A stretch of DNA of 64,000 bases from Myxococcota bacterium (lineage in GTDB: Bacteria > Myxococcota > XYA12-FULL-58-9 > JABJBS01), in assembly GCA_036339465.1 (NCBI GenBank), contig JAYZAY010000054.1, positions 1-64,000 on the forward strand. The letters run 5' to 3'. A model generated the notes under the pieces. It searched no databases. It was given only the letters and a program-made list of their open reading frames with translations, and was not told where the DNA came from. A program made the position numbers and the translations under genes. This document shows, one piece after another, positions 14,811-51,757 of the stretch. The first letter of the stretch is position 1, and every line of letters starts with the position of its first letter.

Positions 14811-14821
14811 TGCTTGCTTAG

Positions 14822-24472: not shown

Positions 24473-24479
24473 CTTCTGA

Positions 24480-24511
24480 GCTTAGTCGCTTAGTCGCTTA
24501 GTCGCTTAGTC
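24480..24511. repeat. 8-bp tandem repeat (GCTTAGTC)x4
   Basis: Four perfect copies directly after the DUF2330 stop. Confidence 0.9.
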
Positions 24512-26950: not shown

Positions 26951-27084
26951 AAAAAGACAAAGAAATTGTCTCGCCCCTCCCAGTTGTTGCCACTGTGCGT
27001 TGCCTCAGGTTGATTGGAATCATTCAGCTTTAGGGTTGCTCTCTGAGGCTCGGCCGCTAAAGCAACCAACCAAGGTATGTTAAT

Positions 27085-27852: not shown

Positions 27853-29112
27853 TTAATCCACCCGCCAATACATGAATGACCGCGTGTTGGATAGTTCTGG
27901 GCGGTCAAAGAACGCCAGGGCTCCATCCCGCACCGCATAATCCCACTCTTCCCCGTCGTTGAGCTTATAGAACTCAACCTCGGCGCCAAAAGTATGGTGA
28001 AACGGCGGCGTTTCGACCTTTTGAAGGGCGATACCCCCTAGAGAAAGCTGGTGAACCATTTGAATCCGACTCTCACCGGCCAACTTAAAGCCATTGAGAT
28101 TCATCTGGCTGCCCACGCGCTCTTTTTGTAGGAGCCAGTAGACTTCTTTGGCCTTACTGGCCTCGGGAGGAAGCTTACAAACCAGGAGCCCCTGATTTAT
28201 CTGAAACGGCGCATAGGGCATTTTCGTCCGTGAGGTTCGAATAAGGTTTTCAAGCTCATCCAACAATGTATTGAAAAGCGGCCCTAAGCCCTGATGGTCA
28301 TAAACGAGCTTCAACGAGGGAGGCTGTTTTTCCCGATAAATTGACACATCCAGGTAAAAACCATGCATTGCTCTGAAAATATCGTAGGGGTGGTAGCGAA
28401 TATCCCCGTCTAAGTTCGCCAAAATGGCCTGGAATTCATAGAGCCCCCTTAAACATTGCTTCGCTGAAAATAAACTTGCACCGCCCAAATAGTGTTCTTG
28501 GATATCGTCAACGAGGGCTTGATGAAACGCCTCTGTAATAGAATTGGCTTTTTCAAAGACATGGTCAAAGAACGGGGAGCGTTGGGTAGACACGGTCGGA
28601 GGTATATATTCCTGGCTTAATGACCAAACCCCATCCACATCTTTTTCGAAATCCCCAAGTTTGAAGGAATGGAGGGAGGTTTCCGAGTAGGGGCTGGCTG
28701 ATAACTGTATACGCTGAAGGATCTTGTCGATGCTCTCTTCATCTTCGGATTCCATGTCGCCAGAATGCAATGTCTCAAACCCGGACTGGAGGTGTAAATA
28801 GAGAGAAACCTGTGAAGACCCAGCGATGTTCAAATTCATGGCATTGGGTTGTGTGTTTCCCGGGATATCCACCAAAACGCCACTGGGTAAAACCAGGGTC
28901 AATTCCTTTAGGCTGACGATGCCCTCGAGAAATTGGAAAGGATCCCATTCAATACTTGCCAAACCCCATTGGGGGAGTGAAAAGTTTGTAAAACGAAGAT
29001 TGCTTTCTTCCCGTAGAGAATGCTCTTGGGCATAGAAATGCTCTGGCAATAAGGCTTGCCCAATTTGCCAGTACACGCGTGCGGTCTGATGGTTGACTTT
29101 TCTTATAGCCAT
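27853..29112 (-). CDS. tssK: T6SS baseplate subunit TssK (IglD-like)
   Basis: RVYWQIGQALLPEHFYAQE, WGL, HPYDIF, YDH. The ORF-track TTG start (29187) lies inside a hairpin, so ATG 29112 is preferred. Confidence 0.88.
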   Translation of the reverse strand: MAIRKVNHQTARVYWQIGQALLPEHFYAQEHSLREESNLRFTNFSLPQWGLASIEWDPFQFLEGIVSLKELTLVLPSGVLVDIPGNTQPNAMNLNIAGSSQVSLYLHLQSGFETLHSGDMESEDEESIDKILQRIQLSASPYSETSLHSFKLGDFEKDVDGVWSLSQEYIPPTVSTQRSPFFDHVFEKANSITEAFHQALVDDIQEHYLGGASLFSAKQCLRGLYEFQAILANLDGDIRYHPYDIFRAMHGFYLDVSIYREKQPPSLKLVYDHQGLGPLFNTLLDELENLIRTSRTKMPYAPFQINQGLLVCKLPPEASKAKEVYWLLQKERVGSQMNLNGFKLAGESRIQMVHQLSLGGIALQKVETPPFHHTFGAEVEFYKLNDGEEWDYAVRDGALAFFDRPELSNTRSFMYWRVD

Positions 29113-29172
29113 ATAGATGTAATGCCGATATTCGGGGTGTGGAGTCAATGGAAATCCGAAAGAGGAGAGATG

Positions 29173-29200
29173 AAGTTCCCCACTCAAGGATGGGGAACTT
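29173..29200 (-). terminator. Stem-loop between tube gene and tssK (terminator or mRNA stabiliser)
   Basis: AAGTTCCCCA-N8-TGGGGAACTT, perfect 10-bp stem; weak U-tract. Confidence 0.55.
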
Positions 29201-29216: not shown

Positions 29217-29852
29217 CTAAGCTGCGTTAACCTTGATTCCCCAGCCCCAGCAGGTTTTACTGTTTTTGGCAGTTGCAAAGTTCAGCGCTGACATAACATT
29301 CGCATCGGGGACCACCTCAAAATACATGTTATACATGTCAATTTTGATGTTGGGTGCGATTTGAGTGGGACTAGATGCCAATGTCATTTGGATCGTGCCA
29401 CCTTGGTCATTGATCTTCCCTTGCAGCGCAACGGCAGGAAAGCAACGCTCGAACCAGTCGGCTTCTTCTTGATCAAATTGGCATGCCCAATAGTTGAGGT
29501 TTGCGATGTCTGACGTACCCACTGAATCTGTCTTCTTAGCCGATAGCTGATTGAAGTTGGCACTCGAGACATAAACAGAGAAGCGGAGCGCATCACCGGC
29601 TGCGCCTCCCCAGGAGTACGAGTCCAAAATTGCGGCCACGGTTCCTGTTTTCAAGCCGGTATCGTCATCACCAGTCAAACTAAAGTCCGGGGCACTTGTG
29701 TCGTCGTACTTATAGGGAGAGTAGACAACAATATCCGGCTCCAGGGCATAATCCAGAATGGTAAGGGTAGGTAGATATCCTACGGTCTTGTTCTCGCTCC
29801 AGTTAGGTAGACACGCTTGTCTCCAATCACACTGAACATTTGTTAAACTCAT
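29217..29852 (-). CDS. T6SS tube protein, IglC/Hcp-like
   Basis: 211 aa, strong RBS AAGGAG, sits between tssC and tssK as in iglABCD; beta-rich; no canonical Hcp1 motifs. Confidence 0.7.
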   Translation of the reverse strand: MSLTNVQCDWRQACLPNWSENKTVGYLPTLTILDYALEPDIVVYSPYKYDDTSAPDFSLTGDDDTGLKTGTVAAILDSYSWGGAAGDALRFSVYVSSANFNQLSAKKTDSVGTSDIANLNYWACQFDQEEADWFERCFPAVALQGKINDQGGTIQMTLASSPTQIAPNIKIDMYNMYFEVVPDANVMSALNFATAKNSKTCWGWGIKVNAA

Positions 29853-29907
29853 TATAAGCTCCTTAAATGGAAAAGTTTTCGTTCAAATCACTGTATCTTT
29901 TGTGGGG

Positions 29908-31395
29908 TTAGCCCAAACGCGCATCCACTCGAAGGTCTACATCCATACCTTCAAACTGAATATGAGGGAGAATGGAGAGGTTACAGTGATACCAACCCAC
30001 ACGGCCAGGAACTTCGTTGACTTCGAGGCTATAGGCCTTGAAGGGGTAATAACGAAGCGTTAGATCGTCGGGGTTGACCACAGTGGTGATATACTTCGAA
30101 ATCCAATGGTCAATTTGGTTGTAGATATAGGGCGCATCGGCGGTGCTACCTATATTGTCTCGCATAATGCACTTGAGATAGTGCGCAATGCGACTGATGG
30201 AAAATGTGTAGGAGAGATTTGACACCAGCTGGGAATTTTCAGAATCTTTTGGGTCCTTGAAGTTGTGAGACTTCTTAATGGATTGCACACTGAAGAAAAC
30301 CGCGTCTGACGAACCCTTCTTCTGGATGAGGGGAATCAAGCCACTGTTGGCCAGCTCAAGTTCTCGGTAGTCAGGCATGGTGACTTCACATGGAAGCTTG
30401 AGTTGGGTCTCTCCGCGAAATTCGAATTTATGGCTGGGTAGTCCAGCCACCAGGCCGCCGGCCTTTGGCCCACGAATATGCTGGCACCATCCTGACGTTT
30501 CGAAGGATTTTGCCAGATTACGGCCCATCAACAACGAAGCAGGTGCCCAAAGATAATCACTGTCCTCATTGCCAACCCTTTCTTCGAATGACACACCCTC
30601 GGCAGGATTTGTTTCATCGCTATAGGGACGTCGAGCCAGGTAGCGTGGCATTGTCAGACCGATATAGGCTGCTTGTTCGGTTTCCCGAAGCTGATTCCAT
30701 CCAGCGTATTTTGGTGTGTCGAGCATACCCTCGATGTCTCGCAAGTTATTCACTTCGGCCATGGTTTCGCATCCAAAAAATTTGGGTGAAACCGAGCCAA
30801 CGAAAGGGGCATGGGAAGCCGTGGCGACTTTACCCATGGCCTTGAGCCAGAGAAGATCCTTTGGCGTATTGTTGAAATCATAGAGACCGAGGACCGAACC
30901 CCAGGGTGCCCCACCATACTGGTCATATTCGGAAACATAGATTTTTTTGAAGAATTCGGAGCCAGCAATATCAGCGGCGTTCATTTCGAGATCTTCAAAA
31001 GCTTCTTCTTTGGACACGTCCAAAAGCCCGAGTGATATGTCTGCTTTAAAATTGACGTTATTACAGAGATCCTCAATGCCTCTCCACACCGACTCCACTT
31101 CTTGGAACGCTTCAGCGTGGTAAACTTCGTTGAGTTGATCTTCGATAAGCACATCGACTTGATTCACGAGATCTGCGATACGCTGCTTATCAAAGCGGAC
31201 GCCACCTTCGTCCATGTTGTATACAATGGTTGCAAGACTCGAGAGAAAGCGGTCTTCCTCGCTTACGTCCTCAGCCAAATCATTCATATGATTGGTAAGC
31301 ATGGGTATTGGGGATTCCACTTCGCTGCTGAGCTTCACACTCGATAAAAATGAAGGTAAGTCTAATGTGACTTCGGTATCTGTTTGATCTGCCAT
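29908..31395 (-). CDS. tssC: T6SS contractile sheath large subunit TssC (IglB-like)
   Basis: EYDQYGGAP, ASHAPF, YIGLTMPR, GWCQHIRGP, NLSYTFSISRIAHY, RYYPF, PHIQFEG. Confidence 0.95.
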   Translation of the reverse strand: MADQTDTEVTLDLPSFLSSVKLSSEVESPIPMLTNHMNDLAEDVSEEDRFLSSLATIVYNMDEGGVRFDKQRIADLVNQVDVLIEDQLNEVYHAEAFQEVESVWRGIEDLCNNVNFKADISLGLLDVSKEEAFEDLEMNAADIAGSEFFKKIYVSEYDQYGGAPWGSVLGLYDFNNTPKDLLWLKAMGKVATASHAPFVGSVSPKFFGCETMAEVNNLRDIEGMLDTPKYAGWNQLRETEQAAYIGLTMPRYLARRPYSDETNPAEGVSFEERVGNEDSDYLWAPASLLMGRNLAKSFETSGWCQHIRGPKAGGLVAGLPSHKFEFRGETQLKLPCEVTMPDYRELELANSGLIPLIQKKGSSDAVFFSVQSIKKSHNFKDPKDSENSQLVSNLSYTFSISRIAHYLKCIMRDNIGSTADAPYIYNQIDHWISKYITTVVNPDDLTLRYYPFKAYSLEVNEVPGRVGWYHCNLSILPHIQFEGMDVDLRVDARLG

Positions 31396-31438: not shown

Positions 31439-31984
31439 TTATTCTGCTGCGGGTTCTTCTGCTGTGGCTACAACTTTGGTTGGGACCTTAAAGCACGTGT
31501 GATCCTTAAGTGAACTCTGAAGAGCGGAAACCGCGTCAGGGCTATCGCTTAGAGCTTGCACCAAACGACGAAAATCTTTTCGGTTATCGAGGTTTGATTG
31601 TGCTTCCAGTAGTAGCTTCTTGAGCAACATCAATCCCTTCACTTTAGGAATGGCATTTCCCACCGCGAGTGGTTCAAAGGATTTCATGGATTCAATGGGG
31701 ATTTCGATATCGAGACCCTCAGAATTTTCGGCATCGATTCTATTGGGCACAGTCATTTTAATGGAAACGCCCATATCTTTGAGAACCGCATTTAAATTGG
31801 TGCCATCGAGCTGGCGAATGTTACGAGCATCTAAATCGTTTGCCCGGTCGGTGGATGTTCCCGCAGATAAATCACCCATCACCAGCATTCTGAAGGGCAA
31901 TGTAACCTCTTCTTTTTGACCTTCTACCTGAGTTTTGTAAGTAAGAGTTAGTCTGGATTTTGGAATTTCTTGATTGATTGCCAT
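31439..31984 (-). CDS. tssB: T6SS contractile sheath small subunit TssB (IglA-like)
   Basis: IPKSRLTLTY, LPFRMLVMGDLS, VPNRI, SMKSFEP. Confidence 0.93.
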   Translation of the reverse strand: MAINQEIPKSRLTLTYKTQVEGQKEEVTLPFRMLVMGDLSAGTSTDRANDLDARNIRQLDGTNLNAVLKDMGVSIKMTVPNRIDAENSEGLDIEIPIESMKSFEPLAVGNAIPKVKGLMLLKKLLLEAQSNLDNRKDFRRLVQALSDSPDAVSALQSSLKDHTCFKVPTKVVATAEEPAAE

Positions 31985-32223
31985 CGGTTCCCCCAAGGCG
32001 TTTAGGACTCTAAGTCATTTATCTAAAATATGTTTAGGCAGTGACATTCTTACCACTCACCCACGATCCGAACGGAGTTCATCCGAGCACACGCCCAGGC
32101 TTCGAGTCAAGAAATTTGTTCACCGGTTAGGAAGGCTTGAGGAGGGTATGGATAAGAAGGGGCGACTTGCTTACGCTCTCCAGCTTGAGTGACAGACACT
32201 CCATGGGGGGGCGGAGAGCATAC

Positions 32224-33114
32224 TCAACTTTTCTGAGCCGTGCTGCCGTTAAAGACAGTAATTTGGTGTTCAGAAACGCTAGAAGTTCTGATCTTTTCAA
32301 AACCGAGAAAGCCAGCGTTTCCGAGAGTCGCGGAACTGGCATGCTCTTCGACCACCAATACGACTTTCAGCCACAGTGGTGTTGCTTTTAATTTAGGAAG
32401 AAGTCGAGTGGACATGCGTTGTGTTACCAAGAGTGGCCAAGCAGATCCAGTCATCTGTTTTTCGTCCCGGGAATAGAGGATTATCAAAAAGCCACAGATG
32501 GTGGCATTGAAATGCTTACCCAAAGTGGAAGATCCATCCATGACGGAGTGCCCTGTTTGAGCGCCCGAATGGGGCAGCGCGTTTTTGAAACGTTGGCGCT
32601 CAACGACGACTTTGAGTTCGGGGAAATAGAGCGAGAAGAGCCAGCTAAGCCCACTGACGGAATCAAGACCGACCATTTTTGCGTACGCGATTTTGTGAGC
32701 ATCCCAGGATTCATAGAGATGTTGATCGAGTTCCACATAGAGTAGACTGATAAAGGATCGAAGGAGTTGATTGTCAAAGAAACGAAGGAAATTGAAGAAT
32801 GGATCTGGATTTTCCAGGCCTTCAGCAATCTGCATAAAGTAGGAAGGTAAGAGTCCCCGTTGATCGTGGAGCCCTAAATTTAGCCTCACCACCACATGCT
32901 TCGGTGGCCCGTCTTTGAAAATCACTTCGTGGACCAAGGCGTTAATCGACCCGCTATCCATATTGCTTTCGAATAAAATATCGTTCAATTCATAGCCGGC
33001 CCGAGCTAAGACGCGAATCAACGAAATCAAATCAAAATCTCGGGCCCGTCGAGTAATCCTATCCTGATTCGTGGCTCGTTTGTTGGGGCCTAAGGGGGCT
33101 GTCATGGACGCCAT
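32224..33114 (-). CDS. tssG: T6SS baseplate subunit TssG (IglJ-like)
   Basis: FDLISLIRVL, ILFESN, NLGL....LLPSY, FLRFFDNQL, YFPEL. Confidence 0.8.
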   Translation of the reverse strand: MASMTAPLGPNKRATNQDRITRRARDFDLISLIRVLARAGYELNDILFESNMDSGSINALVHEVIFKDGPPKHVVVRLNLGLHDQRGLLPSYFMQIAEGLENPDPFFNFLRFFDNQLLRSFISLLYVELDQHLYESWDAHKIAYAKMVGLDSVSGLSWLFSLYFPELKVVVERQRFKNALPHSGAQTGHSVMDGSSTLGKHFNATICGFLIILYSRDEKQMTGSAWPLLVTQRMSTRLLPKLKATPLWLKVVLVVEEHASSATLGNAGFLGFEKIRTSSVSEHQITVFNGSTAQKS

Positions 33115-33160: not shown

Positions 33161-34165
33161 CTACTGTGAAATAAAGGATTCCAGATCCACTTCGTAAAAT
33201 TGTCTTAAGGTTTCCCATTTTATCCCGTCTCGCTCTTGCCAATGTCCGGAGATGGTTTGAATATTTTTATTGAGGTCCCCATAGAAATTGGCGAAGAGGG
33301 CGGGAAAATATTTCCTGGGGTCAAAGTTTTGGATCAAACCGGAGACATCATCTCCGACCAAGGCAGCTCGGTCTAATTTTTTTGCTTCCACCAAGGATTG
33401 AAAGGCTTTGAGCTTTCGAATCAAAGCCAATAGTTCGGCTGATGGTCCCTGCGTGCCAAAAAGGATATCCAATATTTCGGATGCATCGGAGAGTTTAGCC
33501 TGTGGACGTATGGTGTCTGGGGTTGAGGTCGGGGAAAAATCCCCTTGTGATTCGGTCGATGGTGGTTTGTTTTCCTCTGACACGGACACCTCAGCATTTT
33601 CTTTCGGATTCTCTAAGTGGTGACCTAGATTTCCGAGTTCCCGAGTTAAACTGCTAAATAGGGTTTTTAGGTCAGCGGAATTGAGCTTGTCAAAGAGCCA
33701 TCCTTCCAGCTCGCACACTTGCTCCAAAACCATCTGAAGTTTTTTCTCAGAAAGTCCCAAGACCCATTCCTGCAACTGTTCATCCTTCTTTAAACGATGG
33801 TATTCGATATTGCGAATGAGTTTTTCTAGCAGTGTTGCAACTGATTTAACGACATGTCTGTTCTTTTGTTCAGTTGGGCCAAAACCATCCCATGAGGATT
33901 GGAGAAAGAGTCGGAATGCTTCGCAGTGTTGGCCAAAAACAACCACACTTTCTTGGAGGAATACGTGATATAAGTCGAAGCATAACAGCCTTATATCGAG
34001 AATGTTTTTATCGACCAACGCTTGAATTTCTTCAGAGGCTTCGAGATAGCGTTCTGTCTCGTAGAGATCGCAAATCGATTGAAAGCGTGGGTCAAGGGAA
34101 TCTAGTCCGCTGACCATTTCAGCAGAAGGCGGCGGGTTACGGAGAAATTTAAGAGCTAACGTCAT
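33161..34165 (-). CDS. iglI: T6SS IglI-family protein
   Basis: ILDIRLL, disordered linker, KLKAF..LV, AALV..D, NFDPRKYFP; precedes tssG as iglI precedes iglJ. Start may instead be 34228. Confidence 0.7.
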   Translation of the reverse strand: MTLALKFLRNPPPSAEMVSGLDSLDPRFQSICDLYETERYLEASEEIQALVDKNILDIRLLCFDLYHVFLQESVVVFGQHCEAFRLFLQSSWDGFGPTEQKNRHVVKSVATLLEKLIRNIEYHRLKKDEQLQEWVLGLSEKKLQMVLEQVCELEGWLFDKLNSADLKTLFSSLTRELGNLGHHLENPKENAEVSVSEENKPPSTESQGDFSPTSTPDTIRPQAKLSDASEILDILFGTQGPSAELLALIRKLKAFQSLVEAKKLDRAALVGDDVSGLIQNFDPRKYFPALFANFYGDLNKNIQTISGHWQERDGIKWETLRQFYEVDLESFISQ

Positions 34166-34410
34166 TGGCCATATTTCTAACCTTAGTTTTAGAGGCTGTC
34201 CAACTTTAACGGTCTCCTTAATCTCCATTTTGCCTGAGATTTGGGACTTCTACTGGCCAACACCACCGTATACCCCTGCGTCCTCCTACAATACTCTGTT
34301 TTTTTGATAAGCGAATTCTTTTATTTTTTATAGACTTAGGGATAGATAGCCAAGGATATGAGCCACTGAATTTTAACCCCCAAGAAAGCGGCGGGGCGAG
34401 GGGACGTTCC

Positions 34411-34850: not shown

Positions 34851-36470
34851 ATGTTTATCAATCGACTTATTGTAGACCTAACGCTCAAAATCGACGGCAA
34901 ATCCTACAAGATAGAATCAGGTAATATTAAAAATCTAGATCTCAAGCTGAGTGCCTATGGTTATGAAGCGACCTTGGATTGGTGGAAAATATGCTTAAAC
35001 AAATCGAGTGAAGATACCATTAAGGCCGCTTTTATGAAAAATTCTCTGATCGAAGTCACCATGTCTATCGATCGTTTTTTCGATAAAGGTGGTGAAGCGG
35101 CAGCTCCGATTAAACTGAAAGGAATTGTCACAACCAAGCGCTTCCATGCCAGAGCGTTCGAAGATGTTAGTGGGGAACCTGTTTTACACCGTCATTATTT
35201 TATCTCATTCAAAGACCCGGCCAGTGTCTTGTGGGGCCAGCACTTTCCATGTGATCTGTACACCAAGAAATCGGTTAAAGATCTGATTGAAGATCATAAA
35301 ACCTCGAATTTCTTACTCAGTTATGCTTGCACACCCATGACGACCAAGCACCCATTTCTTTTTCTTGGGCTGGGGCAAAAGGAGAGTTCCGCGAGTTTTT
35401 ATGATTTTGTGATATGGTATTTGAAAAGCGAAAATGCAGGCATGTATTATAATGGGACAAAAAACACTTACACACTCACAACAAAAAAAGATACGAGTGC
35501 GAAAATAAAAGATTTTCCGGTAGCAGATGCTGATATTGTGAATATAGAATTCACCGAAACGCCACGTTACAGCGTCAATGTTTTGAACAGCTATGCGACT
35601 AAATCGACCACGGAAAAAGTTGCAAACAAAGATGAAGTGAAGGGGATTCGGAAGGATATTCTTATTGCATCCCCAATTGCCAGCACTTCAAAATCAATCA
35701 AGACAAATCAAACGAGTAAACTCGTCGATGAACAACCCTTTCTCACCATTGAATACGCTCGATATCCCACCGTCGATGCATTGCCTGGCACGATCTATCT
35801 TTTTAACAAGAGCGACTGGAGCAAAGAGCTATATCAATCCAACAAGAAATTCCGACTTCGAGAACTTCGACTTTTGGCTGAAGCTGAATCTCAATTGGGC
35901 ACCGATGATGCTGACGAGGATTCAAATTCGTACAAAATTCAACTGACTTCGGTTCTAGAAGAAAAAGAAGAAGTGCATCACCCGTTACCAGAATTTGTCA
36001 CACCCTATTGGCCTGCCAAAGTTGAAGGGAAAATTGTCAGCGAAATAGGCAAGGAGACCGAAGAGACTTACCAGCTTTACGAAGATGACTCTAAATCCCT
36101 GGAGCAGTATCACGTAGAGATCCCTCTTTGGAAGAAACAAAAAATAATGGTAAATCATGACCCAAATTTATTTCCTGGGCATTTTTATTTCCCTCTTTAT
36201 AAGGACCACCGAGTGCTGGTTGATATGTCGTTCAAAGAAGCATGGATTAAGCGGCACCTTGAATGGCGTGCAGGCGCCAAACTACCAAATGATAAACAGG
36301 CTAACCACATTCTCTTTGGCAAAAACCCCAAAGACAGCACTTCCATGGTGCATGCTTATAAAGAGAAGAAACCTGTTTTTAGCATTACGCGTCTTTTGGA
36401 TAAAGACACCCAACTCATTCAAGTTTCCGAGGGGGAAATTCTTATTGAAACCAAAGAAAATGAAAAGTAA
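34851..36470 (+). CDS. VgrG hub/head protein without needle (PdpA-like)
   Basis: ESSASFYDFVIW, VEGKIV, OB-fold-like FYFPLYKDHRVLV, NHILFGK; ends where a beta-helix would begin; follows tssE. Confidence 0.7.
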   Translation: MFINRLIVDLTLKIDGKSYKIESGNIKNLDLKLSAYGYEATLDWWKICLNKSSEDTIKAAFMKNSLIEVTMSIDRFFDKGGEAAAPIKLKGIVTTKRFHARAFEDVSGEPVLHRHYFISFKDPASVLWGQHFPCDLYTKKSVKDLIEDHKTSNFLLSYACTPMTTKHPFLFLGLGQKESSASFYDFVIWYLKSENAGMYYNGTKNTYTLTTKKDTSAKIKDFPVADADIVNIEFTETPRYSVNVLNSYATKSTTEKVANKDEVKGIRKDILIASPIASTSKSIKTNQTSKLVDEQPFLTIEYARYPTVDALPGTIYLFNKSDWSKELYQSNKKFRLRELRLLAEAESQLGTDDADEDSNSYKIQLTSVLEEKEEVHHPLPEFVTPYWPAKVEGKIVSEIGKETEETYQLYEDDSKSLEQYHVEIPLWKKQKIMVNHDPNLFPGHFYFPLYKDHRVLVDMSFKEAWIKRHLEWRAGAKLPNDKQANHILFGKNPKDSTSMVHAYKEKKPVFSITRLLDKDTQLIQVSEGEILIETKENEK

Positions 36471-36478: not shown

Positions 36479-38236
36479 TTAGGTTCCTAATTCCTCGGCA
36501 TCGCTTTCAACAACTTTTTCCATCAGCATCCTCAATTCGGACAATACAGGAAATACGGTTGATTGCTGTTTGATTTGGAGATACCCGCTTCGGTATTGTT
36601 CTTCACACCAAGAGAGGTCGATTTTCCCATCTTGTTTTTCAGGGTAAAGAGAATAGAGCTCAATTTGGCCGGGAATAAATTCTGAGCCGAGCTCCATGCT
36701 TAGGACTTGATAGATTTCGCTTCTGAACGAGTTTTTATTTTCATTGCTTAATGCACCAAAGATGCCCGCATCGAGAAATATTAGTAAATTGATAGATCCC
36801 TGTTGATATCCCTTAGCATTTTGAGCATTCAAAACCACGCAGTCGTAAACTGCTTCAAATCGACAAACCAGATTTTGAACCTCAGTTTTAGGATACGTTC
36901 GTGCACCACGTACACCGAACATGGTGCCCACAAAATAGTTTTCTCGATGGTTTGGACGATTGAGGATGCTCAACCCGTAATGGTGTTCGTTAAAATCGAG
37001 GGCGGGGGTGCCAAAAAATCCACTGCTATCCATTTGTGATTCGGCTCCACCGCCGAAATCCATGAGACTCCAGGGATTTCCCGGAGAAGGAAATATTCGC
37101 AAATGTGATACTGATTTTAACTTTTGTCCAAATAGGATGATACCTCCATAAGCGGAATTCGCCAGGATATTCATCGCCCATCGCATCTCATTGTTGAAAA
37201 ACTTAGAGAAACGCTCCCATGACTCCCAATCCATGGGCATGGCCACGTCCTTAAACCAGAGCCGTATGGGCGCTGATTCAGTAGGAGGGCGACTCAATAG
37301 CCAATCGCGGGTCCTATGGTTAAGCCCAACAACCGTTACTTCGAAACCATCTGAACATTCTGCGTTTTCAATCAAGTGGTCGGGGTCTGTCAAAACAAAA
37401 GTTGCTCCCGAGAATAAAGACACTAAGAAGAGCCACGGTTGATATTGCAGGTCATGAAAACCAGGGGCACTCAATTTATCCCCCTCTTGAAGGCCAAAGA
37501 GAAGAAAAGCATCGCTTAAGAGTCGATGATAAAGATCACTTGCTTTTAATTCTACCGGCTCTGTGGAATTGGTACTAAGTGGCGAAAAGAGGCGCATGAC
37601 CACCTGTTCTGCCTCGTAACCATGAACTTCGTGGTGAATAGAACCAAATTCAATTTTAGGAAGAACGCCTGAGGGGAGTTGTTTGTCTGCAAAATCTCCG
37701 AGAAATACTTCATACTTATTCTCAGTCACCACAAAAGCCGGTTCCAATGTGCGCAAACGGTTCTTTACAAAAGTTCGGCCCTGGGGTGGAATAAACGAAA
37801 AGATGCCGCCTAATTTCAGCGTTGTGAGCATGGCGATCAGAAAATTCAGGCCAGGATGAAGAACCACGCAAACCACACTCCCTACTTCAAAACCTTTGTC
37901 CAGCCATTCACTGGCAACTTGTGATGCTTGTGTGGTCAAATAATCAAACGAATATTCCTGCCATCCGTTGATGGCATCATAGAGCCGAAGAGCGGGAAGT
38001 CCCTTTCCTTGATGTGGGTGTAGTAAATCCCAAGAAAACACATAATGTTCAAATATTGAAGATTTTCGGGCGCCATGGATGCTTTGAAACTCTTCAAATA
38101 ATGAGGACCAAAACGACTCCGGTTCTGCATAACTTCGGTGTAGCCAATTTTGGGGTTGAATTGTGGGTACCTCAACCCGATCAGTACGCAAGCTCGACCT
38201 TATCTTACTAAAGTCAAATTGATACTCTATTGTCAT
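36479..38236 (-). CDS. Degenerate AMP-binding (ANL-fold) protein in the tssM-tssJ operon
   Basis: ANL-like N-terminus (ASEWLDKGFEVGSVVCVVL..FLIAML..LKLGG) and C-terminus (EV....FEAVYDCVV, DGKID); lacks the SG.TG.PKG and TGD motifs. Confidence 0.65.
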   Translation of the reverse strand: MTIEYQFDFSKIRSSLRTDRVEVPTIQPQNWLHRSYAEPESFWSSLFEEFQSIHGARKSSIFEHYVFSWDLLHPHQGKGLPALRLYDAINGWQEYSFDYLTTQASQVASEWLDKGFEVGSVVCVVLHPGLNFLIAMLTTLKLGGIFSFIPPQGRTFVKNRLRTLEPAFVVTENKYEVFLGDFADKQLPSGVLPKIEFGSIHHEVHGYEAEQVVMRLFSPLSTNSTEPVELKASDLYHRLLSDAFLLFGLQEGDKLSAPGFHDLQYQPWLFLVSLFSGATFVLTDPDHLIENAECSDGFEVTVVGLNHRTRDWLLSRPPTESAPIRLWFKDVAMPMDWESWERFSKFFNNEMRWAMNILANSAYGGIILFGQKLKSVSHLRIFPSPGNPWSLMDFGGGAESQMDSSGFFGTPALDFNEHHYGLSILNRPNHRENYFVGTMFGVRGARTYPKTEVQNLVCRFEAVYDCVVLNAQNAKGYQQGSINLLIFLDAGIFGALSNENKNSFRSEIYQVLSMELGSEFIPGQIELYSLYPEKQDGKIDLSWCEEQYRSGYLQIKQQSTVFPVLSELRMLMEKVVESDAEELGT

Positions 38237-38260: not shown

Positions 38261-38713
38261 TCATCGCCCCTGGACCGCAATTTTTTGGATTTCGTGGGCA
38301 CCCAATGAAATCTTTGCTTCAGAGGGCAGGGGATTTCTAAACATATAATACCAATTAGGTCCGGGATCTGTGAATAAGAAATAAACGGCGATATTGTCTT
38401 CATCGGGCGTACGGATTTCAAGATGAGAGATTTGGCCAGGGAGAAGAACTTCTTTGGATAATACGGTGCTTTCTGCCGTTGAGCGGAAGACGTTGCTGGC
38501 GATACTCTTGTAATCACTCGAAGCCAAGGCATCGGAACCCGAGCTTCGAACTACGACGTAAAATGGCTCGCCGCCGTTGGTTGCTTGTGACGTTTTCACT
38601 TGGATTCGCATCATCGATGTACATCCCGACACACCTATCCAACCACAAAGAAGAGCTACAAGTGGCACCCATGCACTTCGGCGAAAGCTCAAGTATTGTT
38701 GATAGTATCTCAT
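38261..38713 (-). CDS. tssJ: T6SS outer-membrane lipoprotein, TssJ/IglE-like
   Basis: Lipobox VSGC, TNGGEPFYVVVR, IAVYFLFTDPG; overlaps the tssM stop (ATGA). Confidence 0.7.
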   Translation of the reverse strand: MRYYQQYLSFRRSAWVPLVALLCGWIGVSGCTSMMRIQVKTSQATNGGEPFYVVVRSSGSDALASSDYKSIASNVFRSTAESTVLSKEVLLPGQISHLEIRTPDEDNIAVYFLFTDPGPNWYYMFRNPLPSEAKISLGAHEIQKIAVQGR

Positions 38714-41700
38714 TGTTGGTCCCTATAGACGATTTTCCGAGTGTTGGGAAGAATTTCGAATAGAGTCCAAGGATTCTCATATAAGACAAAACTTGCCTCA
38801 ATATTGACCCGAGAATCATCAGGAATAGGTAGATCCCAAGACCAAGTATTGTGGCTATCACGAGCCTGCTTGAGCAACTCATAGAAGCTCCAATAGGAAT
38901 CTTGAGTCACCATGGGTTGCGGATAAGAAGGTTGACGATTTTCGACATCGGTAAATTGCGCTCCAAGTTGGGAAACATGCCGCATGGTCCAATCAAGGTT
39001 TACTTTGGATTGAAAGGGTTTTTGATTGATATTCACGAGGGAATTCTTGCCCCAACTGAGATAAACCAGAGTCAATGTGTCACTCTGACCTTTTACCATA
39101 GGGCCAAAGGGGACCGGCTCAATGGTGAATTCTAGGTCTTTGGGGTTACCCTCTGAGTCCCATAACCTTTTTGCCAATCGTGTGGTATTATTTAAGGCAG
39201 TGATCATGTCAGAGGGCAGATGAAGTCTCCGCAATAATGATGGTTTGGCCATATACTCGCCGCCCTTCAGAACCGTGACCGGAAGCACGTATTGATCCAC
39301 CAACTGGAAAAACCGACCTAAGGTGGGATGTAAATGAGCTTCGAGTTCCTGTGGGTCGACCTCTTCAGTGCCATTGTGGTCAAAAGGAAACTTTCTCAAT
39401 ACGGGTCGAATACTTGGGAGGAGGTCGTGGGCCCAAATTTTGGCGACGGTTGTTTCTAGTTCTCTGAGGCCAACCAAGTACAATTGATGGATAGGGGCTA
39501 AGAAGGGTTGCCTTAGCTCTTTTACAATGCCGACACTGTTGACCCATTGGTTCACAATGTTGAGATAGGTGCCGTCCTGCCTCATAAGGGTATCGAGGGC
39601 CTGGCTCCCCACCGGGTTTAACCGGGCTTTGAGCCCCACCGCAGTGGTTGAGGTTTCTTCTGTGGCCGAAGCTGTTTCAGTTGCTGTTAAGGTGCTATGC
39701 AACTGGTCCAAAATAGCCCGATACTTATCAAACTCAGGATAGACCCCATCGGTTCTCTTCATCACTGTATTAAAAGAGCGAAACCGAGCTAGGGCATTCA
39801 CCATAGGGTCAAAGAGCTCGGTTCTCGATTTTTCAAAATTGATATTGGTATTCTTATGCACAAATTGAAGAAAAGTTGTATAAGGTGAGACGGGCTGCAA
39901 AATTTGCTTAATTGCGACCAACAGACCTTCCACCGACCCCACATTTAGACGAAAAGAATGATAATAATTTAATGTTTGTCGAGCATACTCGGAAGCATAT
40001 GCATCCATTTTCCGATAGATAAATTGCTTTAATTCCCATCGGTCCTGTGGGGCTAAATCAACCGCCCCTAAAAGTTGGTCAAATTCCATGATGGCGGGGC
40101 GAATTTCTTTATTAAAGGCTGCGTGAGTATAAATGCCCTCTACCTGAGTTTTGCCTAGGAAGAGGGAGTTCCCATTATTGGTAGGATTTAAAACCACGGC
40201 CGAGTACTGAGTTGGATCCGAAAAAAAGGTCGAACCGTTTCGAGTGGCATTATGGTCCATAAAGGATTTGACGATGTGCCGGATCCGGCTAGTTTTCATG
40301 ATCGCATACCAATCGATATTTCGAATCATGAATTGGGTATCTTGAATTTTGAACTCCCAGCTCCTTGGTTCAGCTTCTTCTGCACTCGGATACTGTTTGG
40401 CTTGTTTGATTAGCCCAATTAAATTTGGCAGGGTTTCTGGGGGAGATTGCAAATCTATAAAGCGACTGCCTACAAAGAGCTGAAGAACGGCGCCTATTTT
40501 TTCGCTCATTTCGGGGGGCAAACTATTCTGTTGGATCTGCGGAAAGAACATTTGGTATTGCTTGGTATCGCTGGCAAAGGGCGAATCTTTTAAGAGCGTT
40601 AGAATTGTTGCACCATGTCTGAATCGCTTTGCGAAAGAAAGCTCATCTAAGAGGTCAGAACCAATGGCCTTATGTTTCTCAAGTTGCGACTTTGTGACAT
40701 ACTTATTGCGCTTAATGAGTTCGCGATAGGTTGAAAATGCCAGACTCCACTTTTCTAGATCTTCAATTCCTTTAGATTTAAAGGTCGTAGGTAGGGTTTT
40801 CTCCGAAAGTTGTCCAGAATGGGGTTCGAGAGTATTTTCGATATAGACTTTGATGAGTTCAGCGGGAAGTCCCGAAGCTTTTTGCCAATCATCCAAATTC
40901 TGAGAAACAAATAATCCCATAGCGTTACTGCTGGAAGCTCGTACCAAGCCTTGTAAATACAACGTTTTCAAGTGCGGGTCACTGGATAGTAAGGCCTCTT
41001 GGTAGGCGGGTTTGATTTTTGTTTCGAGAATAATTTTGGATGCTTCTTCTCGAATATATTCTTGAGCCACCCCAAGAAATTCAGGCACAAGAACATCTCG
41101 TGCGGCATAGGAAGAAACACCGGTAAAATTGGAAACGGATGCCAAATCCTTTGCTGCAGCATCTGTTACCTTTGAAACGTTTAAAACCTCTAGGGCCCGG
41201 TCAGCACGCTGCCACAGGTTTCTTTCGTAGGAGTACAAACCTACCAGGAGTGCGATCATCACGCCTGTCACTGCAGCGGCTAAACGGCGATGCCGCAGGA
41301 GGGGAGCATCCGCCTCTAGTCCGTAATGTTCTGAACCAGCGGCGAGAGGGTTGTTGGTATTGGAAGGATAGTCTTTTGAGGTGAAATATATTCCCCCAAG
41401 AGTGGGTAGATAAGAAAGGGATTCGGGTCTCAGAAGACTGTCTAAAACCTCTGATAGGGCTCGGAATGATTCCGGGGCCGCCTTCAAATACCGAACCACC
41501 TGTTTGAATTCGTCAGCGGTGCAACCACTGAGGGCAATGGGTAGATAGGTCCCACATTCATCAAATGCGCGCTGTATACTGCTTTCTGTGGTCGATTCCG
41601 GGTGAAGAACCGTGGGGATGGCTCGATTCTTGGTGAAGGCACTAAATTCAGCGTAGCCTTGGACTTTATCCATTCCCGTGATGGCTAGCCGCACTTCGAC

Positions 41701-42357
41701 ACAACCCCCATGGGCCCAAGAAAGGAGGTTGAGTTTCCCACGTATCCTTTCGGCGATCTTTTCCCGTGCATCGGGGGTTAACGCACCCAGCTCTTCAACT
41801 GACATCACCACCACTACAGTGGGTGGAGTATTCTTGAATAATTTTTTCCACAGACGAAGGATGGCCTGTCGGGTGGGTTTTGAAGTGTCGTTGAGAAGGG
41901 AAGCTGAGATTTCTTGTAAGACCGTTTTGGAACCCAAATAGATCTTCAAGTCGACATCTTGTTCATATTGGGTTAGGAATTGATTCGCCTGACGCTGCCA
42001 ATCGGTACTCGAGTCAATTAGCGCGGATTTCCCACTCCCCGACGTCCCTAGAACCACGATGGGCTTGAATCGTTGGAGGCTTCGCTGAAAAGTTCTGGGT
42101 ATTTCCCGTAAGAACCGATTCCAAATCCTAGTCAGTGCGTCTTTACGCATCTTAACCCCGGATATCGGTACAACTGGCCGCTCTTCGCTCGTGGTTTGTT
42201 CTTGTTTTGCCTCTTTCTTTTTCTTTCGCCAGTACCAAATACCGACAATCAATGGGATGAGGAGAATAATCAGCTTGAGTACGGCAGGATGAATCTTCAC
42301 ACCAAAGCCCTTGAGTATTTTGAAGAATGCCTTGAGTTCTTTCACGTTTCCGACCAC
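38710..42357 (-). CDS. tssM: T6SS membrane complex protein TssM/IcmF (PdpB-like)
   Basis: N-terminal TM, Walker A VVLGTSGSGKS, second TM, GIYT, KFPF, WSFYELL; 1215 aa. Confidence 0.88.
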   Translation of the reverse strand: MVGNVKELKAFFKILKGFGVKIHPAVLKLIILLIPLIVGIWYWRKKKKEAKQEQTTSEERPVVPISGVKMRKDALTRIWNRFLREIPRTFQRSLQRFKPIVVLGTSGSGKSALIDSSTDWQRQANQFLTQYEQDVDLKIYLGSKTVLQEISASLLNDTSKPTRQAILRLWKKLFKNTPPTVVVVMSVEELGALTPDAREKIAERIRGKLNLLSWAHGGCVEVRLAITGMDKVQGYAEFSAFTKNRAIPTVLHPESTTESSIQRAFDECGTYLPIALSGCTADEFKQVVRYLKAAPESFRALSEVLDSLLRPESLSYLPTLGGIYFTSKDYPSNTNNPLAAGSEHYGLEADAPLLRHRRLAAAVTGVMIALLVGLYSYERNLWQRADRALEVLNVSKVTDAAAKDLASVSNFTGVSSYAARDVLVPEFLGVAQEYIREEASKIILETKIKPAYQEALLSSDPHLKTLYLQGLVRASSSNAMGLFVSQNLDDWQKASGLPAELIKVYIENTLEPHSGQLSEKTLPTTFKSKGIEDLEKWSLAFSTYRELIKRNKYVTKSQLEKHKAIGSDLLDELSFAKRFRHGATILTLLKDSPFASDTKQYQMFFPQIQQNSLPPEMSEKIGAVLQLFVGSRFIDLQSPPETLPNLIGLIKQAKQYPSAEEAEPRSWEFKIQDTQFMIRNIDWYAIMKTSRIRHIVKSFMDHNATRNGSTFFSDPTQYSAVVLNPTNNGNSLFLGKTQVEGIYTHAAFNKEIRPAIMEFDQLLGAVDLAPQDRWELKQFIYRKMDAYASEYARQTLNYYHSFRLNVGSVEGLLVAIKQILQPVSPYTTFLQFVHKNTNINFEKSRTELFDPMVNALARFRSFNTVMKRTDGVYPEFDKYRAILDQLHSTLTATETASATEETSTTAVGLKARLNPVGSQALDTLMRQDGTYLNIVNQWVNSVGIVKELRQPFLAPIHQLYLVGLRELETTVAKIWAHDLLPSIRPVLRKFPFDHNGTEEVDPQELEAHLHPTLGRFFQLVDQYVLPVTVLKGGEYMAKPSLLRRLHLPSDMITALNNTTRLAKRLWDSEGNPKDLEFTIEPVPFGPMVKGQSDTLTLVYLSWGKNSLVNINQKPFQSKVNLDWTMRHVSQLGAQFTDVENRQPSYPQPMVTQDSYWSFYELLKQARDSHNTWSWDLPIPDDSRVNIEASFVLYENPWTLFEILPNTRKIVYRDQQ

Positions 42358-42551: not shown

Positions 42552-43166
42552 TTATTCACCCCATTGTTTCACCAAATTCACGGTTTTTCCTAGGGAGACT
42601 TGAAGGTTCGATTTCTTTCCTTCTTGGGGAACAACTTCAAATTCCATGCGATAGACTCCAATATTGATGTTCTCGGAAATTGGGGTCGCGGTGGATTGGG
42701 TAAAAAGCTGCATCTCGCCACGGGTGGTGTTTAAGGTGGCGCTGGCTCCCGCCGAGGGTGACTTAACGTAGGCACCGTCATACCAGGAATTAACGTCTTT
42801 ATCGAAGGAGCAAATGAAGTAGTCTAGTTTCAAATTGGTATTTCGAAGTCCCTGGCTGAGTTTTGATCGGATGGAAGCACTGGTACTTGCACTTATGTAA
42901 GCAACGATTCGGATGGGGTCAAGTTCGCTCCCCCCGTATTCAAAACTCTCCATAACACCAACACATTTAATCGAAGATCCCTTTTGAACTCTCGAATCGG
43001 GATAGGGGTTCCAAACCTCGATATCCTGTTTGAGGTTCAAGCCACCACAGCCACTCCACTTTACCACATAGCCTAGGGTGGTGGTTCTCGCGGGATTTCG
43101 GTTGAATGCCTCTGGCCAATCACACTCAAATTTTATGACATTACCGTCTGCCACGGTTACTCCCAC
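42552..43166 (-). CDS. Second IglC/Hcp-like tube paralog
   Basis: Colinear with 29217-29852: CDW, T[VL]GY, DI.V..PY, C.FD, NI.I..Y.M.FEVVP, terminal WG. Confidence 0.75.
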   Translation of the reverse strand: MGVTVADGNVIKFECDWPEAFNRNPARTTTLGYVVKWSGCGGLNLKQDIEVWNPYPDSRVQKGSSIKCVGVMESFEYGGSELDPIRIVAYISASTSASIRSKLSQGLRNTNLKLDYFICSFDKDVNSWYDGAYVKSPSAGASATLNTTRGEMQLFTQSTATPISENINIGVYRMEFEVVPQEGKKSNLQVSLGKTVNLVKQWGE

Positions 43167-46929: not shown

Positions 46930-47310
46930 CTAATTGATTTTGACCGTAGGACATCCGGGCGCTTGGATCTTTCCCAAAGGGGAAGGGATGGGGGCCACAC
47001 AGGTGAGATGGGCGGTCTTATCTCCCACACGCGCTGCGGGAAGGCCGTAGATTTTGACCTTCTTTGAACCATCCACCACAAGCCCTGGTCCCCCCGGAAC
47101 ACAGGGACCCAATAGGCAAGGTGTGGTAACACTTCCGACAATCGCCGCAGGCTGGCCACCAATCAAGACATTGGGCACCCCAACGACAATGGGCAAGGGT
47201 AAGGGAGAATGGGGGACTGGGGTTGGTACTGGAGCAGGTGGGTGAATTGGCGCATGACAGTGGGGGCTGGCCTGTTTAACTAAATCACCAACTCGAGCGG
47301 CATTGGGCAT
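46930..47310 (-). CDS. PAAR domain protein
   Basis: MPNAARVGD, GQPAAIVGS, GLPAARVGD, GCPTVKIN. Confidence 0.92.
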   Translation of the reverse strand: MPNAARVGDLVKQASPHCHAPIHPPAPVPTPVPHSPLPLPIVVGVPNVLIGGQPAAIVGSVTTPCLLGPCVPGGPGLVVDGSKKVKIYGLPAARVGDKTAHLTCVAPIPSPLGKIQAPGCPTVKIN

Positions 47311-47804: not shown

Positions 47805-50423
47805 CTATTTTTCTTTAGAAATTTCAGCGTCTTGGGAAATAGCATCGCTTGTGGGTGGCTTTTGGATATCCAATTTTAGTTGACCCTCTAATTTTTGGAC
47901 ATGGACCACGTCCAGTTCCTCAACATCCCCTTGCACAATCAGCTCCGCAATGGGGTCTTGGAGTTCCCGCTGAATACACCGCTTGAGGGGCCTTGCACCA
48001 TAGGCTGGGTTGTAACCCAATTGGGCTAAATGGGTGACTGCTTCGTCGGAAACGACAAGGGTTATCTTCCTCTCTTCCAAGAGTTTTGCCACCCGTTTTA
48101 CCTGAATTTTCACAATGGGTTGCATAGCGGTGCGGGTGAGGGGACGAAAAATCAGTAAATCATCCAATCGATTGATGAATTCTGGTCTGAAATGGTCCTT
48201 CACCGCCTTATTTATGGAGGATTTCAGACGCTTGTAAACGGCGCTTGTATCTTCAAGATCCTCAGGTAAATCAGAGATGGCGGATCCTAGATTGGATGTC
48301 AAAAGAAGAATCGTGTTCTTGAAATTGATGGTTTGACCTTGACTATCGGTCAAGTGACCATCGTCTAAGACTTGGAGTAGAAGGTTGAATACGTCCCCAT
48401 GTGCCTTCTCTACTTCGTCCAATAGGACGACGCTATATGGTTTTCGTTTCACTTGATTGGTGAGTACACCACCTTCCTCGTAACCGACATAACCAGGGGG
48501 GGAGCCGATCAATCGAGCCACTGAGTGCTTCTCCATGTACTCACTCATATCGATCCGAATGAGGGACCGCTCATCACTGAACATGAAAGCGGCCAAGGTC
48601 TTTGCCAGCTCTGTCTTACCGACTCCTGTGGGCCCAAGCATCAAAAATGAGGCTAAGGGGCGATTGGGGTCTTGTACCCCGGCTCGTGAGCGGCGGATTG
48701 CTTTGGCAACTGCGGCTACCCCTTCTTGCTGCCCCACAACCCGCTCTGTTAATTCCGACTCCAAATTCATGAGCCGCTGGCTCTCTTCATCCATCAGCTT
48801 TTTAACGGGAATGCCGGTCATATGGGCAATGGTTTCTGCGATGTCCTCTGGTGTGATTTCTTGGCGCAAAAAATGCGTTTCATCGGGGGAAATTTCTTCA
48901 CAGTCACCAACTCTTGTTTCCAGATCAGGGATAATTTTGTATTGGAGTTGGGCGACCCTTGCAAAATCTTCGTCGCGTATTTTCTGTTCCATTTCGCGAC
49001 GAGCGTCCTCCAGCTCTTGTTTGAGATTTTGCGAATTCAGAATACTCGCCTTCTCTTTTTCCCACCGTTGTAGCATGGTCGCATATTCGCGGTGCAGCTC
49101 ATCTAGGCTTTCTCGTAACTTTTCAGACTCGGGGGTAGGGCGATTGTCGTTGTCTTGTTCAAGGGCCCTAATTCCAATTTCTTGATGAACAATCTTCTCA
49201 TTGAGATTTTCAATTTCGATGGGTTTGGAAGCCAATTCCATCCGAACATTGGCTGCGGCTTGGTCGATGAGGTCGATGGCCTTATCTGGAAGATATTTTT
49301 CCGTCAGGTATCGGTCTGAGAGGGAAACTGCGGCATGAATCGCGGAATCGAGAATACGAACCCCATGATGCAATTCGTAAATTTCCCGTAGGCCTCGTAA
49401 AATGGTTGTGGCTTGCTCTAGAGTAGGTTCTTCCACGAGCACCATTTGAAAACGTCGATTTAATGCGGCGTCGGTTTCGATTTTTTTGCGGTATTCTGTG
49501 GTGGTGGTGGCTCCCAAACACCTAAATTCGCCTCGGCTTAGGGCAGGCTTTAATAAATTCGATGCATCCGCAGCTCCCTCAGCGGCACCAGCGCCCACCA
49601 GCATATGAAGCTCGTCAATAAATAGAAGAATGTTTCCCGCATGAGAAGCCTCAGCCAAAACGGTCTTCAATCGCTCTTCAAACTCCCCACGAAATTTCGC
49701 CCCCGCAATAAGCTGCCCGAGATCCAGTGCCAAAACACGGTGACCCAATAGTGTATCTGGTACGTCGCCATCGGAAATTTTTTGGGCCAACCCCTCGACG
49801 AGCGCCGTTTTTCCAACGCCAGGTTCACCGACAATCGCTGGGTTGTTCTTCAAACGCCGACTCAATATTTGGATGACTGCTCGAATTTCAGAGTCGCGCC
49901 CCAAAATGGGATCAATCTTTCCTTCTTGGGCCCGTTTGGTTAAATCTGAGGTATATTTCGAGAGCGTTTCAAATGCACCTGCATCGGATGTATCTCCAAC
50001 GGTTTCCAAGGCTCGTTCAAGTTCTAGGGAGTCGGTCCCCGCTTCCACCAAGCTATTTTGAATCGACTCCTCTTGGATCAGGGCATGGAGGACCTGTTGA
50101 TTGGATATCTTTTTGAGTTTTTTCTGTTGGGCATATTCATGGGCACGAATTAGAATTGCTTCCAGACTTCGATTAACCGGGGTTTGGGTTTGTTCGGTGG
50201 TCGCTTTTGGAACGGCTTGAAAATTGTCTTTTAAGTTGGTTCGAAGCCGTTCCCTATCTACTGAAGTAATGTCAAAATACTTTTGAGCCCCCAAATCACT
50301 ATTCTCTAAATAGGCATGTAAAAGATGGTGAGGGCTCACGTATTGATGCTCTAGGGAAAGAGCATACCGGCATGCTGTTTCAATTGCCTTTTGCGCACTT
50401 AGATTAAAATTCTCAATTCTCAT
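47805..50423 (-). CDS. clpB: ClpB-type AAA+ ATPase inside the T6SS locus (probable ClpV role)
   Basis: [26 protein letters not shown], coiled-coil M domain, [28 protein letters not shown]. Confidence 0.9.
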
Positions 50424-51061: not shown

Positions 51062-51757
51062 TCAAAAATTCGTAGAAAAATCGATGTAGCCCACCAAAAA
51101 GAGCAAGCAATAGACACCCAACACAGTCCCTAAGCCAAAAACGTAGTATCGCCACGGAAAATCAACAAGCTCCACGCCTTGGTCATCCATGGCCTCTCTT
51201 GTTGCCGGGGTGAAATTTGGGAGGGGTATTTTGGCTTCTAGGCGGGCGAGATAATCCCCGAGACGGGCTTCTGTGTTGATGAACGCGCCCTTAAAACCAT
51301 TTCGTAAACAAAAATAGAAAACTTCGAAAACCAAGGGTAGGGTCTGGGGGCGTCGCAGCAGTTCATCGGCAGTGGTGAAAAATATTTCTCCACCATTGTC
51401 AATATTGAACAATTCCTTTTGAAGTGGAGACCAGATCCGAGCCTTATCGGATAAATATTGATGCACCATCTCATCGAAATGAATGGTTAGTGGAAAGAGA
51501 CAATAATAAACTTCACGTTCGGTGAGTTCTATGGAAAGCTGTTGCTTCAACCACCCGAGTCGACTTCGAATCAACGAGCGTAGTTTGACAATATCCGCTC
51601 CTTCAGATGTCCCGTCGAGGTATTTTCCGCCGGGAAGTGAAGCCGCTTCACCTTGTAAACGTAGAAACTGCTTTTCTTCAATCAGAGCTTCTCTGCAGGC
51701 AGTCTCGGTTTCGGTTACGACCTGCTCGATTATAAACCATAGCTGTTCACCACTCAT
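51062..51757 (-). CDS. tssL: T6SS TssL / DotU
   Basis: PLTIHFDE, W.PLQ.ELF....GGEIFF, EVFYFCL..GFKG, C-terminal TM. Confidence 0.9.
   Translation of the reverse strand: MSGEQLWFIIEQVVTETETACREALIEEKQFLRLQGEAASLPGGKYLDGTSEGADIVKLRSLIRSRLGWLKQQLSIELTEREVYYCLFPLTIHFDEMVHQYLSDKARIWSPLQKELFNIDNGGEIFFTTADELLRRPQTLPLVFEVFYFCLRNGFKGAFINTEARLGDYLARLEAKIPLPNFTPATREAMDDQGVELVDFPWRYYVFGLGTVLGVYCLLFLVGYIDFSTNF

Follow-up and report, generated by a model that had tools for sequence, protein, structure and literature searches.

How does a gene that resembles those of adenylate-forming enzymes come to lie among the core genes of a type VI secretion system (T6SS), and what might its product do there? The question is raised by a 64,000-nucleotide stretch of DNA from a Myxococcota bacterium (assembly GCA_036339465.1, contig JAYZAY010000054.1, positions 1 to 64,000; hereafter the window), in which an open reading frame (ORF) at 36479..38236 encodes a protein of 585 amino acids (66.7 kDa, pI 5.2) with neither a signal peptide nor a membrane segment. 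A first-pass annotation of the window had described this ORF, without stating that it lies on the minus strand, as an apparently inactive adenylate-forming enzyme recruited into the T6SS. It is very probable that both halves of that description hold together, the protein being at once a pseudo-enzyme and a T6SS component.

The 585-residue protein is a member of the ANL superfamily from the acetyl-CoA/acetoacetyl-CoA synthetase branch. Membership of the superfamily, taken as a fold and homology class, rests on a two-domain fold together with an above-threshold profile match, and both were found. The AMP-binding profile PF00501 matches residues 87-315 only, at E 2.3e-8 (33.7 bits, cut-off 29.9), and the predicted structure contains the whole two-domain ANL fold with its hinge region at high confidence. 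The comparison with acetyl-CoA synthetase proposed in the first-pass annotation thus returns a predicted likeness over the full two-domain fold. Like the AMP-forming acetyl-CoA and acetoacetyl-CoA synthetases (PDB 2P2F, 1PG4, 8RPK and 4WD1), the modelled protein has a large N-domain, a small C-domain and an Acs-type N-terminal extension, and it shares with acetyl-CoA synthetase the sequence signal of the A1/A2 region. It differs from these enzymes in its low identity to them (12-16%), in a family-wide lack of conservation of the A3 P-loop, A5 Glu and A10 Lys, in an extra C-terminal helix (residues 561-584) past the aligned ranges, which end no later than residue 555, and in a gene context that is a secretion machine rather than metabolism.

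The protein also belongs to a large family of its own. A word-indexed protein search returned three relatives only, and an exhaustive profile search returned 331 cluster representatives (clusters at 50% identity) at E<=1e-30, the best 150 of which are nearly all full-length at about 545-650 residues. In the 145-sequence family alignment used for the motif counts given here, the window protein agrees with the rest at 39 of 41 columns in which conservation among the other 144 sequences reaches 85% or more. Given these conserved columns and the 331 representatives, the ORF is a genuine gene rather than a product of chance. The positions invariant specifically in this family include W111, W340 and D540-x-x-W543, and the copy in the window forms a long branch in the family tree. 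Public databases label the members either 'AMP-binding protein' or 'hypothetical protein'.

In active ANL enzymes the A3 P-loop reads T/S-S/G-G-T/S-T-G-x-P-K-G, and the A5 Glu and the catalytic A10 Lys are functional residues. At the place of this ATP P-loop, residues 216-230 of the window protein (codons at 37547..37591, minus strand) read LFSPLSTNSTEPVEL, exactly the altered loop written out in the first-pass annotation, and the profile-to-Acs alignment skips the region. Across the family the region has no conserved glycine and has become L-F-S-P-x7-P, with F217 in 101, S218 in 98, P219 in 122 and P227 in 113 of the 145 sequences. When the other two positions are mapped from a hidden Markov model alignment to Acs rather than from superposed structures, Ala stands at the A5 Glu position in 104 sequences and Lys at the A10 Lys position in 16. 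The fatty acyl-AMP ligase (FAAL) encoded in the same window at 10348-12030, which the first-pass annotation had offered as an intact comparison, does carry CTSGTTGTPKGV along with YGLAEA, TGD and SGK (NF006624, E 7.7e-129), and hhalign of the ANL-like family against this FAAL aligned the A1/A2 region only. The loss of adenylation activity, as judged from these motifs in the window protein and its relatives, is well supported across the family, and the database label 'AMP-binding protein' is misleading for metabolic reconstruction. The gene itself is under purifying selection and is not decaying. In six Corallococcus-type loci its ratio of nonsynonymous to synonymous substitution rates (dN/dS) is 0.15-0.42, compared with 0.18-0.53 for IglI and 0.11-0.31 for TssC.

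The ANL-like protein is a fixed component of a Francisella-like T6SS locus in marine and soil Myxococcota. All 13 reference-genome loci with the gene are from Myxococcota (Corallococcus, Pyxidicoccus and metagenome-assembled genomes of Polyangia), and in 12 of them TssB, TssC, TssK, IglI and a homolog of a 539-residue protein of the window are encoded beside it, the exception being a contig of 4 kb. Of 401 Myxococcota genomes sampled, 75 have the ANL-like protein (E<=1e-20), and the NCBIfam IglI model scored above its cut-off in the same 75 and in none of the other 326, the two genome tables having been compared by reading. These 75 genomes are kin rather than independent cases, as they fall in 14 of the 154 genera. 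Among the genera with family members are the culturable Corallococcus, Pyxidicoccus, Myxococcus, Sorangium and Haliangium. When metagenomes were scanned with an alignment of IglI, 16 loci came up, each of Myxococcota type, and the ANL-like gene is present in all eight whose contig extends upstream of IglI. DNA nearly identical to the window locus occurs in marine metagenomes from at least four studies, and tblastn of the 585-residue protein against a plasmid collection gave no match. The first-pass annotation had made its reading depend on conservation in similar loci, and the homologs are indeed linked to T6SS genes in 12 of 13 loci and 75 of 75 genomes.

The arrangement of the neighbouring genes points the same way. 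In the window, the stop codon of an IglE-like (TssJ-type) lipoprotein gene (38261..38713, minus strand) lies 24 bp before the start of the ANL-like gene, as the first-pass annotation had it, and the ATG of the IglE-like gene overlaps the stop codon of a TssM-like gene (38710..42357, minus strand) as ATGA. Because of the 24-bp gap and the ATGA overlap, the three genes are read as one operon. The IglE-like protein (150 residues) has a VSGC lipobox and matches PF22361 (E 6.1e-18) and NF041245 (E 5.7e-14; 52 bits, below the equivalog cut-off of 75), and the TssM/IcmF-like membrane subunit (1215 residues), which fills the PdpB slot, matches TIGR03348 (E 1.3e-18) and PF14331. In three relatives, one of them from the window's own family, genes for TssM, the IglE-like protein, the ANL-like protein, a DUF4280 protein, IglI and a 296-residue protein form a single same-strand string. 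The IglI-family protein of the window (33161..34228, minus strand) matches NF041244 at E 6.4e-64 (216.6 bits, cut-off 100) and aligns with a Francisella IglI-family protein at an hhalign probability of 97.6%. An IglE-type lipoprotein and an IglI-family protein are features of the Francisella-type T6SS (T6SSii), and both are present in the window. The sheath, TssK and TssF of the window also match general T6SS models well, and a ClpB/ClpV-type gene lies within the locus. The window locus shares parts with T6SSii, and it is not filed here as T6SSii.

The closest neighbour of the ANL-like gene in the relatives encodes a PAAR-like spike tip protein. A DUF4280 gene lies directly downstream on the same strand in 44 of the relatives' 46 loci, among which at least four pairs are the same place (L001/L042, L007/L023, L008/L020 and L013/L038, with identical match statistics); dropping identical proteins and adding the metagenome loci left 43 distinct DUF4280 sequences. 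The relatives' protein matches Pfam DUF4280 at E 7.8e-35 and the NCBIfam IglG model NF041248 at E 8e-22. The ANL-like and DUF4280 genes are 3 nt apart in one locus (L049), and in Corallococcus-type loci the ANL-like gene stays beside DUF4280 with TssM and IglE located elsewhere. As the DUF4280 gene is retained even there, the tightest linkage of the ANL-like gene is to the spike tip gene, and this is the main basis for placing the action of its product at the spike or baseplate. In a genome with two ANL-like copies, one copy is followed not by DUF4280 but by a 350-residue ORF that differs in composition and lies on the other strand (L022, 38-1090, plus strand), an arrangement that suggests an insertion or rearrangement.

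The explanation that we favour, with modest confidence, makes the ANL pseudo-enzyme a constant accessory part of a T6SS that carries IglE and IglI; its site of action would be the spike tip or the baseplate, and it would be the counterpart of Francisella IglF in position. Under this scenario, an enzyme of the acetyl-CoA synthetase branch would have been recruited as an accessory T6SS subunit; it would perform no adenylation and would serve, in the cytoplasm, as a scaffold that binds proteins at the tip of the spike or at the baseplate. By helping the PAAR-type tip to be loaded or positioned, it may promote the start of assembly, the role given to IglF in the Francisella island, and it may exit the cell with the spike. 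In the genome of the window, the DUF4280 partner would have been lost, with a classical PAAR protein as the only tip candidate.

The likeness to IglF is one of gene slot and size. The Francisella pathogenicity island (FPI) has the order pdpB-iglE-vgrG-iglF-iglG-iglH-dotU-iglI-iglJ. Minus vgrG and iglH-dotU, this string equals the myxobacterial order gene for gene and would assign the IglF slot to the ANL-like protein, whose gene follows those of the TssM-type (PdpB) protein and IglE and precedes the IglG-type DUF4280 gene, with IglI further on. In Francisella, unlike here, vgrG stands between iglE and iglF, and iglH-dotU between iglG and iglI. The full slot is seen in the relatives; in the window itself its IglE side is present and its PAAR-like side absent. 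The 66.7-kDa protein of the window, predicted to be cytoplasmic as it has neither signal peptide nor membrane segment, is close in size to IglF, given as 67.9 kDa (PMC5924787), and the T6SS that it belongs to shares IglE- and IglI-family proteins with Francisella. Published work places iglF between vgrG and iglG and describes IglF as binding IglG, as secreted and as needed for efficient sheath assembly; it has also been proposed there as a PAAR-bound effector, and papers from 2016 to 2026 call its function, fold and location in the machine unknown. Homology to Francisella parts is established at the level of sequence for IglI, the IglE domain and the IglG-type domain, and the ANL-like protein is probably the positional counterpart of IglF.

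Several observations weigh against the accessory-subunit explanation. IglG binds IglF through an N-terminal helical extension, as reported (PMC5014421), and the relatives' DUF4280 proteins are bare PAAR-like domains of 126-127 residues starting MGxQV. Their match to the IglG model is confined to positions 57-171, so that they lack the IglF-binding extension of Francisella IglG. Moreover, DUF4280 proteins 61-70% identical to these occur in canonical T6SS loci of Burkholderiales, Azospirillum and others, beside a full-size VgrG in the one such locus examined and with no match to the ANL-like protein in the plasmid collection, and the tip protein therefore needs no such partner. The window's own genome (92.8% complete) has no DUF4280 (PF14107) at E<=1, and its classical PAAR gene lies 9 kb from the ANL-like gene; this looks like a swap of the tip protein in the window's lineage, in which DUF4280 would have been lost and the classical PAAR protein is the sole candidate. 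For the IglF counterpart proposed in the first-pass annotation, the gene slot in the relatives and the size agree, and against it stand the lack of the IglF-binding extension in DUF4280 and of any DUF4280 in the window's genome. Away from the tip, three loci (L060, L062 and L067) have another gene, or none, between the ANL-like gene and IglI. The 296-residue protein in the IglJ slot of the window (32224..33114, minus strand), which follows IglI in all relatives, has no match to the IglJ model NF041243 and reaches an hhalign probability of 3% with IglJ. The window protein is one of the 16 that have the A10 lysine (K538), and it may still bind a ligand. Finally, RNA evidence for the ANL-like gene consists of one 157-nt contig from a metatranscriptome run and one 270-nt contig from a run whose RNA nature is a guess, both within the gene, and this is too little to claim transcription.

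This canonical locus lies on a Caballeronia plasmid (L070), where tssH and a full-size tssI flank the gene (13992-14381) for a DUF4280 protein with 63% identity to its myxobacterial counterpart. PAAR-like proteins of this type are therefore common to very different T6SS architectures.

The steady pairing with the tip gene (44 of 46 loci) would also be expected if the protein were secreted, as a cargo or effector that rides on the PAAR-like tip and binds or sequesters a metabolite or a host or prey protein in target cells. IglF is reported to be secreted and has been proposed to be a PAAR-bound effector, and the sequence divergence leans in the same direction: of the T6SS proteins compared between the window and a locus of the same family (L049), none diverges more than the ANL-like protein (25.7% identity against 70% for TssC), and the window's copy is on a long branch. 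However, there is about one copy per locus in a fixed place, its presence coincides with that of IglI in all 75 genomes, no immunity-like partner or variable cassette was seen at the loci, and the dN/dS of the gene resembles that of IglI. Known effectors are variable and lineage-specific, and we regard a cargo role as unlikely. A regulator, in which the pocket binds a nucleotide, acyl-CoA or fatty acid and the rotation of the ANL domains gates T6SS assembly, or which modifies a T6SS protein by non-canonical chemistry, had been put forward in the first-pass annotation as a ligand-sensing part. The predicted model keeps the two-domain fold and hinge at high confidence, K538 is retained, and G364, G365 and P258 near the former active site are nearly invariant. 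Set against this, the P-loop and the A5 Glu are gone, as is the A10 Lys in 129 of 145 sequences, which makes ATP-dependent chemistry by the known route unlikely, and no carrier-protein or CoA-related gene is conserved beside the ANL-like gene. We would place such a regulator among the rather improbable explanations.

The accessory-subunit explanation has a loose parallel in the T6SS adaptors and chaperones of the DUF4123/Tap-1, DUF1795/Eag and DUF2169 families, whose genes lie beside VgrG or PAAR genes. Like theirs, the ANL-like gene stands outside the core set and is retained next to the gene of the spike tip, and its product would act by binding, not catalysis. Those adaptors have unrelated, much smaller folds and travel with variable effectors, whereas the ANL-like protein is a constant and nearly single-copy element of a single T6SS type. 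A remaining alternative, in which the protein is a normal, active ligase (acyl-CoA or acyl-AMP) serving lipid or secondary metabolism and lies in the locus by chance, is close to refuted. Pfam and NCBI do label it an AMP-binding protein, and a cluster of the FAAL/nonribosomal peptide synthetase (NRPS) type does lie in the same window, but the catalytic motifs are lost family-wide, co-occurrence and synteny with the T6SS are strict in 14 genera and in metagenomes, and the intact FAAL is 24 kb away in another cluster.

A further possibility, which we hold tentatively and below even confidence, is that Francisella IglF is itself a diverged ANL-fold pseudo-enzyme and that the at least 331 clusters found here are its wider kin. 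In that case a single exaptation, in an ancient T6SS lineage common to Myxococcota and Francisella, would have turned the acetyl-CoA-synthetase scaffold into a factor for spike or baseplate assembly. In the literature searched, which did not extend to supplements, no paper was found describing IglF as ANL-like or linking the T6SS to an AMP-binding/ANL fold, and none was found linking Myxococcota to T6SSii-type parts. A protein search by word index, run with the 145-sequence profile, yielded 14 matches, none named IglF, and the PDB and Atlas match lists contain no IglF. The NCBIfam models found for the FPI series are PdpE, IglJ, IglI, IglE, IglH, IglG and VgrG_Fran; neither these nor the neighbouring accessions, which also include UsfY, YhfZ, YebF and TagQ, provide one for IglF. 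An Atlas search of unnamed clusters returned a phage cluster (score 0.95, 130 shared features) that was treated as noise, and nothing from Francisella. A tblastn of IglI against the plasmid collection led to a 42-kb F. novicida plasmid full of insertion sequence elements (L069, NZ_CP010104.1), with stray iglJ and IglI-family genes and a 1937-residue NRPS (8584-9276, 21260-27073 and 29633-30652) and no other T6SS genes.

A large family from non-pathogens in an IglF-like slot, with members in culturable genera and a confident predicted ANL-fold model, makes the nature of the IglF-slot protein a directly testable question. It is also another case in which the fold of a metabolic enzyme has been put to use in a secretion machine. 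A 2026 paper states that T6SSii is exclusive to Francisella, whereas T6SS loci bearing IglE and IglI are common in Myxococcota (75 of the 401 sampled genomes). If IglF did prove to be an ANL pseudo-enzyme, this would contradict the printed claim that T6SSii-type parts are exclusive to Francisella.

The remaining T6SS genes of the window are mostly on the minus strand. Those on this strand encode the sheath subunits TssB (31439..31996; PF05591, TIGR03358) and TssC (29908..31395; PF05943, TIGR03355), the baseplate subunit TssK (27853..29187; PF05936, TIGR03353), the classical PAAR protein (46930..47310; PF05488, E 1.5e-12), which is the sole PAAR-type gene found in the window's genome, the ClpB/ClpV-type AAA+ unfoldase (47805..50423), DotU/TssL (51062..51757; PF09850, TIGR03349) and TssF (51774..53432; PF05947), which also weakly matches the IglH-type model NF041246 at E 1.6e-9 (37 bits, cut-off 75). 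A conserved 211-residue protein (29217..29852, minus strand), without a family match, occupies the tube (Hcp/IglC) slot after TssC, and its 204-residue paralog (42552..43166, minus strand) is encoded upstream of TssM as in the relatives; the two find each other by tblastn. Both paralogs of about 205 residues are kept in these tube-like slots in the relatives, which suggests two tube or tube-adaptor proteins.

The conserved 539-residue T6SS-linked protein of the window (34851..36470, plus strand) has no known family, and PDB sequence searches with it and with a 553-residue neighbour protein gave no match. Its gene is inverted and convergent to the ANL-like gene, 8 bp from the stop codon of the latter, in the place that DUF4280 occupies in relatives. 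A 220-residue protein (53838..54500, plus strand) weakly matches the model for the small VgrG of Francisella type (NF041249, E 2.7e-5, 24 bits, cut-off 100). In relatives, the 220-residue VgrG-like protein is encoded directly after the 539-residue protein and before TssF-DotU; in the window the 539-residue gene has been relocated beside the ANL-like gene. The 539-residue protein might be a candidate PdpA-type spike partner. An ORF at 34218-34613 (131 residues), in the DUF4280 slot of the window, was ruled out as a gene by its low-complexity translation and the lack of a family match.

Other genes accompany the T6SS. Between PAAR and TssM lie genes for a stand-alone response-regulator receiver (44822-45208, minus strand) and a SAM methyltransferase with a weak, sub-threshold Trm112p-like N-terminal match (45814-46911, minus strand). 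The T6SS is flanked by genes for a 1217-residue HEAT-repeat protein with a C-terminal cyclic-nucleotide-binding domain (57107-60760, minus strand) and a 739-residue Plug-domain (TonB-dependent-receptor-like) protein (60775-62994, minus strand). Homologs of the former are found beside the same T6SS type in loci L050 and L063, and of the latter in L050, L051 and L064. At the other end of the window, the intact FAAL (560 residues) is followed by ORFs of 926 and 412 residues (10348-16060, plus strand), in what looks like a cluster of lipopeptide or polyketide type.

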